Positions 36,895 to 40,738 of a stretch of DNA of 64,000 bases are shown one piece after another. Every line of letters begins with the position of its first letter. The stretch's first letter is position 1. The notes beneath the pieces are model-generated. The model was not told the DNA's origin. It saw only the letters and a list, made by a program, of their open reading frames with translations, and searched no databases. Source of the DNA: Thermobacillus sp. ZCTH02-B1 (GTDB lineage: Bacteria > Bacillota > Bacilli > Paenibacillales > Paenibacillaceae); contig NZ_LZRU01000035.1 of assembly GCF_002159085.1 (NCBI RefSeq), positions 19,866-83,865 on the forward strand. The letters are read 5' to 3'. The translations under genes and the position numbers were made by a program.

Positions 36895-37881
36895 ATGCGG
36901 CACCCGGACACACGGCAGACGAACGCATCGCACCCGGGCACACCGCCATCGGACACCCCAACGCCGGACACGGCACCGCGAACGGACACGACGCGAACGG
37001 ACACCGCAACGCATTCGCGCATCATGCATCCGGACACGCAGCCATCGGACGACCTGCAGGACACGACGAACGCCATGCATCCGGGCACGCTGCCATGCGA
37101 CACTCCGCGGCGATACCGTTCCGACGCGTCCGTCAGGGGACGGATCCATTCGATCGAGACGTTCGGTACGATGGACGGACCGGGCATCCGGTTCGTCCTC
37201 TTCCTTCAGGGCTGCGCCCTGCGCTGCCGGTATTGCCACAACCCCGACACCTGGAGCGCCTCGGCCGGCCGGATCATGACCGTCGAACAGGTGCTGGCCG
37301 AGCTCGAGCCTTATCTGGACTATTACTGGCATTCCGGCGGCGGCCTCACGGTATCGGGCGGCGAGCCGGTACAGCAGGCGCCGTTCGTCGCCGCGCTGCT
37401 GCGCGAGGCGAAGAGGCGGTTCCATCTGCACACCGCGATCGACACCTCGGGCTTCTGCGAGCCGGTGCACGCGGAAGCCGGCGGCCTGCTGGACGCGGCC
37501 GACCTCGTGCTGCTCGACCTCAAGCTGATGGACGCCGCGCGGCACGTCGATCTCACGTCGCAGCCGAACGACCGCATCCTCCGGTTCGCCCGGCACCTGT
37601 CCGACACCGGCCGGAAGATGTGGATCCGCCACGTGCTCGTTCCCGGCATCACCGACAGCCGCGAGGATCTGCTGGCGCTCGGCCGGTTCATCGGCTCGCT
37701 GCGCGGCGTCGAAAAGTTCGAGCTGCTGCCCTACCACCGGATGGGCGTGTACAAGTGGCAGCAGCTCGGTCTTCCCTACCCGCTCGCGGACGTGCCGGAG
37801 CCGACGCAGCGGGAGATCGAGCGGGCGAAGGAAATCATCGAGGAAGGGCGGAAAGAGGCGGAAATGGCGCGGCCGGCGTGA
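36895..37881 (+). CDS. pflA: PFL activating enzyme (radical SAM) with low-complexity N-terminal extension
   Basis: GRIHSIETFGTMDGPGIR, CALRCRYCHNPDTW, SGGEP, LLPYH; SD GGAGGG before ATG 36895. Confidence 0.93.
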   Translation: MRHPDTRQTNASHPGTPPSDTPTPDTAPRTDTTRTDTATHSRIMHPDTQPSDDLQDTTNAMHPGTLPCDTPRRYRSDASVRGRIHSIETFGTMDGPGIRFVLFLQGCALRCRYCHNPDTWSASAGRIMTVEQVLAELEPYLDYYWHSGGGLTVSGGEPVQQAPFVAALLREAKRRFHLHTAIDTSGFCEPVHAEAGGLLDAADLVLLDLKLMDAARHVDLTSQPNDRILRFARHLSDTGRKMWIRHVLVPGITDSREDLLALGRFIGSLRGVEKFELLPYHRMGVYKWQQLGLPYPLADVPEPTQREIERAKEIIEEGRKEAEMARPA

Positions 37882-39254: not shown

Positions 39255-39610
39255 TTGACCGGGGAAGAATGGTTTGACGTTTACGACGGGAACATGCGGC
39301 CGGTCGGCGCCGCGCCGCGCAGCGAAGTGCATGCGCGGGGTTACCGGCACCGCTCGTTCCACTGCTGGCTCGCGGCGCCGCGCGGAGACGGCGGCCTGGT
39401 GATCCGCTTTCAGAGGCGCGCAGCCGGGAAGGACACCTTCCCGGACCATTACGACATCACCGTCGCGGGCCATCTGGCCTCCGGCGAGACGCACCGCTTC
39501 GGCCGGCCGCGGAACGCGTGACGGCGGACCGCTTCGTTCCGCGCGACGGATCGTACTACCTCGACGTGTTCCGCCGGCTCCTGAACCTGTCTCCGCCGGA
39601 CCGTGCCTGA
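39255..39610 (+). pseudogene. NUDIX hydrolase (IDI-like) with internal deletion
   Basis: TTG after GGAGG; EWFDVYD...RSEVHARG..HRSFHCW...DITVAGHLASGET breaks inside the Nudix box; C-terminal-like DRFVPRDGSYYLDVF...stop 39610 follows in another frame. Confidence 0.72.
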
Positions 39611-40275
39611 CCGCCCGCGCTCCCGCCGGAAGGCCGCCGACGGCGCGTGTACCGGCCGCGTCCGCGCGCGTGGCCGGCCGGCCGTTGCCGGCGTTTCGCA
39701 GGCCGGGCACACCGCTCCCGGGCGCACCGCACCCGGCCGCGCCGCCCTCTTCCCGCGGCGCCGGTCCGCACCCGACCGCCCGCAGCGATCGTCAGCGCCG
39801 GACCGCCCGCTGCTTCTTCCCATGCGCGGTACCAGTTGTCGATCATGCCGTGGATCTGGTAGAACACCGTGCTCATCGGCGCGACGTCAAAATCGTTCAG
39901 CTCGGGCTCCCCGTAAAGCAGCGCCGCCTGCTGATGGATGCAGTTGTGCAGCCCGGACGCCTCGATGAACCGTCCGAGCTCGTCGGCCGTCGCGAACGAC
40001 CGGGGCATCCGGAGAATGCGCGCCTCCGCGGCCCGGTCATAGCAGGGGGACTGCCGGATCGGCTCCGGCGGCACGATCCAGGGTGCGACGAGCCGCTCGT
40101 CGAGTCCGCGCCGGCGGTACCAGTCCAGCGCCCGCCGGATGAAGCTGCGGTGGAACTCGAGGAAATCGGCGCCGTATCCCGGCGGCGGATTCGCGGGATC
40201 GACGGCCATGCGCGCGCGGTGCCAGGTGCGGTGCTCCTCGAGCAGCCCGCGCGGAAAATCCGGAATGATCGGCAT
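39556..40275 (-). CDS. Minimal type-3 dicopper (hemocyanin/tyrosinase-like) protein with Arg-rich tail
   Basis: SD GGGAGG; H15xxxH19...GADFLEFH42R and H110NCIH114...PxxxxFYQIH142GMID. Confidence 0.72.
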   Translation of the reverse strand: MPIIPDFPRGLLEEHRTWHRARMAVDPANPPPGYGADFLEFHRSFIRRALDWYRRRGLDERLVAPWIVPPEPIRQSPCYDRAAEARILRMPRSFATADELGRFIEASGLHNCIHQQAALLYGEPELNDFDVAPMSTVFYQIHGMIDNWYRAWEEAAGGPALTIAAGGRVRTGAAGRGRRGRVRCARERCARPAKRRQRPAGHARGRGRYTRRRRPSGGSAGGQARSGGDRFRSRRNTSR

Positions 40276-40394
40276 GTGCGTACCTCCCTCGGGACGGCGT
40301 GGCCGTCCGGTATGATGCGGGATACGTCATGATATGCCGCGCATGGCCGTTCCGGACCCCGTCGACGCCGCCGGAGCCCCGTTCCGTCCGCCGT

Positions 40395-40508
40395 TCAGCC
40401 CGGCCAATGCCGGATCAGCCACCACACCGCCAGCCAGAACGGCGCGGACAGCAGCGCGCCGAACGCAAGGCCGGCGAGCGCGTTCCCGTCCTCACCCCTG
40501 CGCCGCAA
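40395..40508 (-). CDS. 37-aa single-pass membrane microprotein
   Basis: TAAGGAGTG SD, TTG 40508; MRRRGEDGNALAGLAFGALLSAPFWLAVWWLIRHWPG. Confidence 0.6.
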   Translation of the reverse strand: MRRRGEDGNALAGLAFGALLSAPFWLAVWWLIRHWPG

Positions 40509-40602
40509 GCCGGACCACTCCTTATCCGATGGTTTCTTACCGACATCTTGTCCCCGCGGTTCCGGCGATATACGTTTTCCGAAAAAAACCGTCCGCAACC
40601 TG

Positions 40603-40662: not shown

Positions 40663-40738
40663 GCTGAAGTAGCTCAGCTGGTAGAGCAGCGCATTCGTAA
40701 TGCGCGGGTCGGGGGTTCGAATCCCTTCTTCAGCACCA
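40663..40738 (+). tRNA. tRNA-Thr(CGU)
   Basis: 76-nt cloverleaf: acceptor GCTGAAG/CTTCAGC, anticodon arm GCGCA-TT-CGT-AA-TGCGC, GGTTCGAATCC, encoded CCA. Confidence 0.97.

Follow-up and report, generated by a model that had tools for sequence, protein, structure and literature searches.

A 64,000-nucleotide stretch of the genome of Thermobacillus sp. ZCTH02-B1 (contig NZ_LZRU01000035.1, positions 19,866 to 83,865; below, the window) carries a gene for a protein of 239 residues, in which a minimal type-3, that is coupled binuclear, copper domain is followed by a basic tail. The open reading frame (ORF) is real, and its pattern of six histidines is more than chance. The domain is predicted to be the bare four-helix copper core known from arthropod prophenoloxidase (PPO) and hemocyanin and from the tyrosinase PvdP of Pseudomonas aeruginosa, and the upstream motif of the gene makes sigmaK-driven transcription late in the mother cell likely. 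Together with the conservation of the domain and the absence of extra domains, these features point to an unshielded dicopper phenoloxidase with a proposed role in tanning or cross-linking the spore coat, a reading to which we assign a probability of about one half.

Residues 1–154 contain six histidines in all, H15, H19, H42, H110, H114 and H142. An earlier annotation of the DNA, the sequence-only reading, had described them as two similar sets forming the CuA and CuB sites of a dicopper protein, and the residues it named (H15xxxH19, GADFLEFH42, H110NCIH114, P133xxxxFYQIH142GMID, E105 and N111) are exactly as written there; it had also suggested examining the conservation of these histidines. 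Scanning species genomes gave 100 confirmed loci, of which 80 were kept, named as Thermobacillus, Cohnella, Paenibacillus, related Paenibacillaceae or unclassified Bacillota. All six histidines are present in 80 of 80 loci, in every row of a 71-row alignment (the window protein and 70 of the 80 loci, the 10 left out being mostly near kept ones) and in 127 of 130 gap-free rows of more distant relatives. W18, G35, F38, F138, E105, C78 and C112 are likewise invariant in the 71 rows, and D146 is kept in 66; C78 and C112 are a possible disulfide pair. Two of the residues named here lie within the CuB stretch: C112 and N111, the residue directly after the first CuB histidine (HisB1+1), a position occupied by Gly in 47 rows, Ala in 16, Asn in 7 and Ser in 1. 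Conservation ends at about residue 153. The closest named relative, from Thermobacillus xylanilyticus (locus L001), is 84% identical over the domain. Close orthologs mostly have extra histidines beside CuA, at positions 20 (64 of 71) and 23 (69 of 71), where the window protein has R20 and M23; most distant relatives lack them too. We rejected H19 and H23 as the CuA pair instead of H15 and H19, because position 23, Met here, is His in 14 of 120 distant rows, as against 135 of 137 for position 15.

The close orthologs belong to a wider bacterial family, for which HMMER searches over 1.84 billion representatives returned at least 239 clusters at E ≤ 0.001. The wide set used here has 151 rows (147 of the 150 listed and four others), and the 21 rows gapped at a histidine column were left out of the histidine count given above. 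E105 is kept in 128 of 149 rows, and both Phe residues four positions before the third histidine of each site are retained in the family along with the six core histidines and E105. HisB1+1 (n = 147) is Asn in 73 rows, Gly in 40, Asp in 13 and Ala in 8, so that 134 of 147 have one of these four, and position 112 is Cys in 13 of 147. The first and last histidines are 120–164 residues apart (median 137; 128 in the window protein), the first two CuB histidines are separated by four residues rather than three in 38 of 127 rows, and the residue nine before the third histidine is His in 7 of 127. Members either stand alone at about 155 residues, a natural example being a 157-residue Cytobacillus protein on a 1.1-Mb contig, or are fused to lectin or propeller domains; other named members come from Streptomyces, Kitasatospora, Pseudonocardia and the B. 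cereus group, and look-alike clusters in the Atlas are mostly from Pseudomonadota. Among the 126 of 140 new representatives scanned, the extra domains were FG-GAP (15), PPC (3), PASTA (3), tectonin (2), H-type lectin (1) and fucose-lectin-like (1); P0242 has an NCBIfam lectin match, and signal-like N-termini occur in 24 of the 37 members with an N-terminal extension. Such lectin or propeller domains or signal-like N-termini would fit an oxidase acting at surfaces. A tblastn search of phage and plasmid sequences gave no match, and in 400 class-sample genomes the only match to the wide profile was one full-length hemocyanin-like protein. A tree of 74 hand-picked rows, built by a quick method and with the label Paenibacillaceae given to rows without a name by similarity and not by taxonomy, places the close clade in one group (Shimodaira–Hasegawa-like approximate likelihood ratio test, 96); its outgroups are joined by a very long branch, so it does not separate an ancestral from a reduced form.

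Library models recognize the domain in part. Pfam Tyrosinase (PF00264) matches residues 95–154, the CuB half only, with E 0.0013 and scores of 19.6 and 20.8 bits, which lie below the gathering score of 22.6; some orthologs pass it by way of their CuB half. Hemocyanin_M (PF00372) matched none of the 71 close members at E ≤ 1 and none of 126 members at E ≤ 0.001, and was not among the best 25 of 29 families for 61 members; in one Atlas look-alike cluster it occurs on 11% of members. An NCBIfam scan of the window protein found no match, nor did a sequence search of the PDB with the single sequence or the close-clade profile. With wide profiles, PvdP came first in the PDB (E 6.9e-5 and 7.4e-4), E105 aligned with the Glu five residues before HisB1 of PvdP, and HxxWH and GxxFxxxH fell into register with (arachnid) hemocyanin CuA, these stretches not being significant by themselves.

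The AlphaFold2 model of the domain is all-helical (predicted local distance difference test, pLDDT, 96.3; predicted template modeling score 0.92), with H15 and H19 on helix 9–20, H42 on helix 34–55 and the CuB histidines on helices 109–121 and 136–153. When the model was compared with 48,161 chains using VIA-align, 26 chains reached Z ≥ 5, every one of them a type-3 copper fold, and the next unrelated row had Z 4.2. Aedes PPO6 ranked at the top (Z 13.6, 149 residues aligned, 3.0 Å), with Panulirus hemocyanin and a crustacean prophenoloxidase at 13.3 and, lower down, the fungal AsqI at 11.5, hexamerin at 11.1, PvdP at 10.6 and Streptomyces tyrosinase at 9.8. A second VIA comparison gave 14.0 for Manduca PPO (149 aligned, 3.0 Å, covering Manduca residues 193–418 only), 13.9 for Limulus hemocyanin, 10.2–10.9 for PvdP and 8.8–9.1 for B. 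megaterium tyrosinase. The arthropod PPO and hemocyanin matches thus have Z 13.3–14.0 over 146–152 of the 154 residues, two such rows standing at 10.1–10.3, and the 154 residues correspond to 220–226 residues of the arthropod proteins, in domain II only. A Foldseek search of a viral library found no match, and a single-sequence model (pLDDT 64) of a 157-residue stand-alone member, P0265, had PPO/hemocyanin-type proteins or PvdP as its top eight at Z 4.5–5.8, in the noise range.

What had been proposed from the DNA, a type-3 site reduced to four helices and with a CuA of arthropod style, agrees with this ranking, with the Trp directly before the second CuA ligand, with the GxxFxxxH register and with the Gly nine residues before the third ligand. 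The symmetry claimed along with it holds at the level of motifs, but profiles of the two halves could not be aligned with each other (probability <1%), and we do not retain a sequence symmetry of the halves.

According to part of a 2013 survey (PMC3658974), type-3 proteins have a Phe four residues before the third histidine of each site and an Asp four residues after the last; F38, F138 and D146 occupy these positions in the window protein, next to six conserved histidines that the model places on helices. The spacing of its CuA, H15-x3-H19-x22-H42, is the H-x3-H-xn-H form of the beta subclass. The domain I (with its placeholder Phe) and the Ig-like domain III of that subclass are absent, the protein beginning at the copper domain and ending in an unconserved tail. 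The H-xn-H-x8-H CuA of alpha tyrosinases is not found either, since G33 stands nine residues before H42. A Glu before HisB1, the 'water keeper', is present as E105 and is not diagnostic of enzymes. PvdP-type features are lacking: the protein has 239 residues, its domain starts at residue 1 and no pyoverdine-type genes adjoin it. By its sequence, the protein is neither an alpha tyrosinase nor a full member of the beta subclass, and its CuA is of the beta type. The sequence-only reading had set it against characterized bacterial tyrosinases as having an H-x8-H CuA; this was overstated, PvdP being an exception, and full-length bacterial proteins with Hemocyanin_M and Hemocyanin_C exist.

The same reading had noted a mother-cell −10-like element upstream of the gene. 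A mother-cell promoter motif is indeed there, and it resolves as the sigmaK and not the sigmaE type. The element, CATATCAT, has the form CATAnnnT, which, with (A/C)AC about 17 nucleotides upstream, we take to be the sigmaK consensus. CATAnnnT was counted within 130 nucleotides upstream in 81 sequences, with 571 ORFs of the same loci as controls, and occurs in 79 of 81 as against 62 of 571, an 11% background. When the 79 motifs were aligned on the −10 alone, C stood at −18 in 92% and A at −19 in 67%. The AC-17-CATAnnnT form precedes 48 of the 81 genes, C-17 precedes 73 and a sigmaE-type form precedes one. Both sigK and spoVFA, which are sigmaK targets, are present in the Thermobacillus genome, and the AC-17 form also precedes them there. 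The spacing given in part of PMC517825 is compatible with the sigmaK form, the consensus letters not being taken from that source. In the wider family, the −10 was seen in 4 of 71 metagenome loci.

The tail, described earlier as Arg-rich, has 26 Arg and 2 Asp or Glu in its 85 residues (155–239), and its last ~18 codons overlap, in antisense, the 3′ end of a convergent NUDIX gene. Among orthologs, the tail is between about 15 and 160 residues long; 44 tails are basic and of low complexity, and 36, mostly from Cohnella, have a DxDG motif within a small beta domain. Of the 44 basic tails, 36 carry a higher charge than shuffled DNA (0.186 versus 0.110); L001 was dropped from this test, as fewer than 8 of its residues lie outside the NUDIX overlap. 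Some room is left for a tail that is pure high-GC read-through. In Cohnella loci (L007, L010, L012 and others), a conserved Trp-rich beta domain of ~110–130 residues with DxDGDG follows residue ~155 instead of a basic tail; a Pfam scan of the one such domain scanned (P0096) found no match. At the other end of the window protein, the absence of a signal peptide is borne out by an N-terminus without a hydrophobic stretch (best 10-residue Kyte–Doolittle mean 0.78).

From these features we infer the metal, the chemistry, the location and the substrate as follows. O2 would be bound by CuA and CuB as a bridging peroxide, with E105 as the base that would take the proton from a phenol or catechol entering the site; o-quinones formed in this way could then couple with side chains of coat proteins or polymerize to pigment. 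Given that there is neither a signal peptide nor a shielding domain, timing and copper supply would gate the activity, and attachment to the coat may fall to the variable basic tail or, in Cohnella orthologs, to the small beta domain. A basic tail, the lack of an export signal and late timing in the mother cell fit a coat protein. A passage of PMC4700666 describes the placeholder Phe that blocks the PPO/hemocyanin site as coming from domain I, and hemocyanins as turning into phenoloxidases when it moves; as domain I is absent here, an enzyme is favored over a carrier. The same source, in the part concerned, reports that the Glu equivalent to E105 is needed for activity in Anopheles PPO8, and that this Glu is conserved across type III proteins generally.

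Several observations weigh against this reading. The gene is present in 113 of 300 sampled genomes of the family and nearly fixed in some genera, yet other sampled genera of this spore-forming family lack it altogether (0/38, 0/37, 0/24 and 0/21), so it is not a core coat enzyme; the close profile matched 0 of 400 genomes sampled across the phylum. The window's own −35 (TCC) is imperfect, L001 and L036 lack a strict −10, none of six near-identical loci of a second Bacillales clade has one, and the orthologs are kin, so that the promoter count does not represent 81 independent events. Only 10 of the 44 basic tails are individually significant. Foldseek against the PDB gave nothing at E ≤ 0.001 (best E 2.0), and VIA itself cautions that Z near 13–14 is possible for helical bundles; the agreement of the histidine pattern and the clear gap to unrelated rows argue against such a chance match. 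E105 and N111 had been taken as the Glu/Asn pair linked to monophenolase activity, a claim that does not survive: N111 is Asn in so few close orthologs, and Limulus hemocyanin has Asn at HisB1+1 as well. With the Glu general and the Asn shared, neither residue separates an enzyme from a carrier; part of a 2024 review (PMC11608171) lists N/G/D/A-type residues at HisB1+1 for tyrosinases and calls Asn untenable as a defining feature. PvdP, the closest characterized bacterial relative, acts on a small molecule, and the Thermobacillus genome also holds a multicopper oxidase, a possible source of pigment.

This last property of PvdP leads to the least improbable of the alternatives, unlikely as it is: a dicopper oxidase of the PvdP kind that, in place of cross-linking the coat, would act late in the mother cell to tailor one particular small molecule or peptide. 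PvdP, the pyoverdine maturation tyrosinase, is the best sequence match among solved structures, AsqI stands high by fold, and one subfamily of the wider family consistently shares an operon with a gene resembling ATP-grasp peptide maturases. The 80 close loci, however, have no conserved biosynthetic neighbor, the conserved neighbors being NUDIX and MscL-like genes, and such ATP-grasp genes occur neither in these loci nor in the Thermobacillus genome. Next in order, and rather unlikely, is a six-histidine site that holds Zn, Fe or Mn, or that stores or buffers coat copper without catalysis. Type-3 folds with zinc are known (TYRP2, in part of PMC11803259), and the extra histidines 20 and 23 near CuA resemble added metal capacity; but they are missing from the window protein and from most distant relatives, whereas the six core histidines, both Phe residues and E105 are kept, and retention of the Glu favors catalysis over storage.

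We consider it improbable that the protein is a bacterial mini-hemocyanin, that is a reversible binder, sensor or scavenger of O2, despite a fold equally near hemocyanins (Z 13.6–13.9) and prophenoloxidases (13.3–14.0) and the HisB1+1 Asn shared with Limulus. Fnr-like, pflB and pflA genes lie 1.7–6 kb from the ORF in the window and had been offered as an O2 or anaerobic context, but this arrangement recurs in only 1 of the 80 loci, that of the closest relative; it therefore gives no support to such a role, and we rejected it as context. The domain that supplies the phenol-excluding Phe of hemocyanins is absent, and the promoter is of the sporulation type. A type-3 oxidase with no part in the spore, the upstream motif not being a sigmaK promoter, seems more improbable still. 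It would accommodate the imperfect −35, the loci and the second clade without the strict motif and the few metagenome loci that have it, but hardly the excess of the motif over background, a −35 C that was not selected for and yet stands at fixed spacing, or a form identical to that upstream of spoVFA and sigK. A late mother-cell phenoloxidase of the coat remains the reading we prefer; for some Paenibacillaceae, the protein is a candidate copper oxidase that could harden the spore coat or give it pigment.

The features of the gene are collected in Table 1. Contigs of three other studies span 39497 to ~40500 with 2–3 substitutions each, all at 39569–39592 near the 3′ end of the gene, and one short, depth-2 contig of one run has a 1-nucleotide deletion at 39630, in the tail. 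No second copy was found in the Thermobacillus genome. A run labeled as a metatranscriptome, and probably DNA, contains one 169-nucleotide contig inside the gene.

Table 1. Features of the dicopper gene, in window coordinates.
Feature	Position	Strand	Basis
239-residue ORF with ATG start: minimal type-3 (coupled binuclear) copper domain and basic tail	39556..40275	−	Sequence, orthologs, intact in contigs of other studies
Ribosome-binding site GAGGGAGG, strong	40283..40290	−	Sequence
Residues 1–154, all-helical conserved domain equivalent to domain II of arthropod prophenoloxidase/hemocyanin	39814..40275	−	Alignment, AlphaFold2, VIA
Predicted CuA ligands H15, H19, H42 (H-x3-H-x22-H; W18, G35, F38)	40150..40233	−	71/71, model helices, hemocyanin CuA register
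Predicted CuB ligands H110, H114, H142 (H-x3-H-x27-H; F138, D146)	39850..39948	−	Invariant His, model helices, weak Pfam match
E105, predicted 'water keeper' general base	39961..39963	−	71/71 close, 128/149 wide set, PvdP alignment
C78, invariant with C112 in the close clade only	40042..40044	−	71/71 each
Residues 155–239, unconserved Arg-rich tail	39559..39813	−	Composition, alignment
sigmaK-type −10 element CATATCAT (CATAnnnT)	40329..40336	−	79/81 orthologs versus 62/571 control ORFs
Imperfect −35: TCC, orthologs mostly (A/C)AC, 17 nucleotides before −10	40354..40356	−	Aligned motifs

The conserved neighbors are the convergent NUDIX gene, found in 72–74 of the 80 loci, and the MscL-like gene, labeled by eye; no conserved same-strand partner lies directly beside the gene in the 80 loci. 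In the window, the NUDIX gene (39255–39610, forward strand) lacks an internal stretch and has a frameshift at ~39497, where a contig of one other study is ~294 bases longer and those of two more studies diverge; as these contigs differ there, a strain deletion or an assembly fault is indicated. A tRNA-Thr(CGT) gene lies upstream at 40663–40738 (forward strand), and 23 of 60 loci checked have a tRNA-Thr gene within 6 kb upstream. Phage-like genes, recognized by eye, lie upstream in many loci, and several of 7 IMG/VR contigs have the gene close to one end. Together, these observations suggest a prophage integration site beside the gene. Just upstream, at 40395–40598 (reverse strand), is an ORF of 67 residues with a hydrophobic C-terminal stretch and no match in Pfam or NCBIfam. 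The pflA ORF (36895–37881, forward strand) has a long Thr/Pro/Asp-rich N-terminal extension before a radical SAM domain that begins at about residue 94; the extension may reflect a wrong start or a repeat region. A second clade of ~172-residue proteins (L177–L182), ~40% identical to the window protein and with Lys-rich tails, occurs in six Paenibacillaceae genomes, four of which also hold the main ortholog; its neighbors vary and it has no strict sigmaK −10.

In the wider family, one metagenomic subfamily (L096:3708-6132, L098:1111-3698, L101:5001-7502, L146, L151 and others) combines the dicopper domain with Lys/Glu/Asp-rich repeats and a C-terminal FIRxxERPxVG, and directly downstream of its genes lie an unannotated gene of ~230 residues and one resembling ATP-grasp peptide maturases (TIGR04187 below cut-off, at E 1e-32 to 1e-40). 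At 56 loci with at least 300 nucleotides downstream, the motif and the partner occur together in 23, the partner without the strict motif in 7, neither in 26 and the motif without the partner in none. By sequence, this resembles an oxidase fused to a graspetide-type precursor whose recognition motif comes last; neither 'tyrosinase' nor 'hemocyanin' appears in the main text of a graspetide survey (PMC8939145). A relation between the ~230-residue gene and the ATP-grasp gene was not supported (hhalign probability 0.9%). Lysyl-oxidase genes (PF01186, above cut-off) adjoin several wider-family genes (L096:2607-3659 and L101:7641-8693; related ORFs in L097 and L120), so that by sequence a lysyl oxidase is a second type of copper cross-linking enzyme in those loci.

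The type-3 site may have arisen by duplication of one HxxxH...H unit, an idea for which the family offers a test case, and its members are small natural scaffolds for asking what determines whether such a site acts as carrier, catecholase or monophenolase. For the spore coat, tyrosinases produce quinone links and not dityrosine; according to part of PMC7944565, it is still not known which enzyme makes the dityrosine links of the B. subtilis coat. Sections of two 2013 surveys state that only the alpha subclass was found in bacteria (PMC3658974) and that Hemocyanin_M is a likely unikont synapomorphy (PMC3730353), both confining the arthropod-type (beta, Hemocyanin_M) copper site to unikont eukaryotes, and the review cited above names PvdP, in the section concerned, as the bacterial enzyme with insect-type architecture; PF00372 proteins are left out of PMC11803259, as far as the available portion goes. 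Judging from titles and abstract openings, and with subscription journals mostly uncovered, we found no paper on this family; members might figure in the supplementary sequence tables of PMC3658974, PMC11803259 and PMC8939145. The bare ~150-residue form, the breadth of the family and the tie to sigmaK appear to be new. More tentatively, the family might be the smallest natural coupled-dicopper protein and lie near the source unit of arthropod domain II and PvdP, with a beta site bacterial and not unikont in origin. On this doubtful proposal, it would be a plug-in module for surface tanning, timed by sigmaK in the coat and lectin-targeted or secreted elsewhere, with one subfamily carrying a Lys/Glu tail for cross-linking by an ATP-grasp ligase.

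Among known systems, domain II of arthropod PPO and hemocyanin (beta subclass; PF00372; 3HHS, 1LLA and 8JIB) shares the fold, the HxxWH/GxxFxxxH register, the placement of the histidines on helices and the lack of a signal peptide, but it is longer (220–226 against 154 residues), and the window protein is bacterial, has no domain I or III and does not match PF00372. PvdP (6EYS and 6RRP) is the best PDB hit and shares the Glu five residues before HisB1; it is, according to part of PMC11608171, a characterized bacterial tyrosinase with two CuB-type sites. In contrast to the single bare domain with a sporulation-type promoter described here, PvdP has 536–544 residues, is periplasmic, carries an N-terminal shielding domain and matures pyoverdine. 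The Bacillus (Priestia) megaterium and Streptomyces tyrosinases (alpha; PF00264) have the four-helix core (Z 8.8–9.8, 130–136 residues aligned), the CuB Phe and Asp and no shielding domain of their own, but they are about twice as long as the window domain, and their CuA includes a loop histidine where the window protein has Gly nine residues before the third ligand and an extra ligand, H15, on a helix.

Full-length hemocyanin-like proteins of bacteria share the HxxWH CuA with the window protein and are linked to it by profile (E 2.7e-5; hhalign probability 53.5, E 1.3e-4). L087:520-2574 encodes a 684-residue protein of Bacilli with Hemocyanin_M and Hemocyanin_C above cut-off; the full-length hemocyanin/prophenoloxidase-like type further includes L176:2872-4776 and relatives on two Rhizobium indicum plasmids, and the Rhizobium indicum protein WP_138333714.1 has 634 residues. 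In L087 and the latter, the histidines span 213 and 182 residues, compared with 128 here, and these proteins occupy a separate long branch of the tree. A parallel in role is the CotA laccase of Bacillus subtilis, a copper oxidase made in the mother cell that contributes to coat pigment and resistance, built on the unrelated multicopper-oxidase fold with four coppers. By analogy only, the role of the Thermobacillus protein is likely the same as that of CotA.

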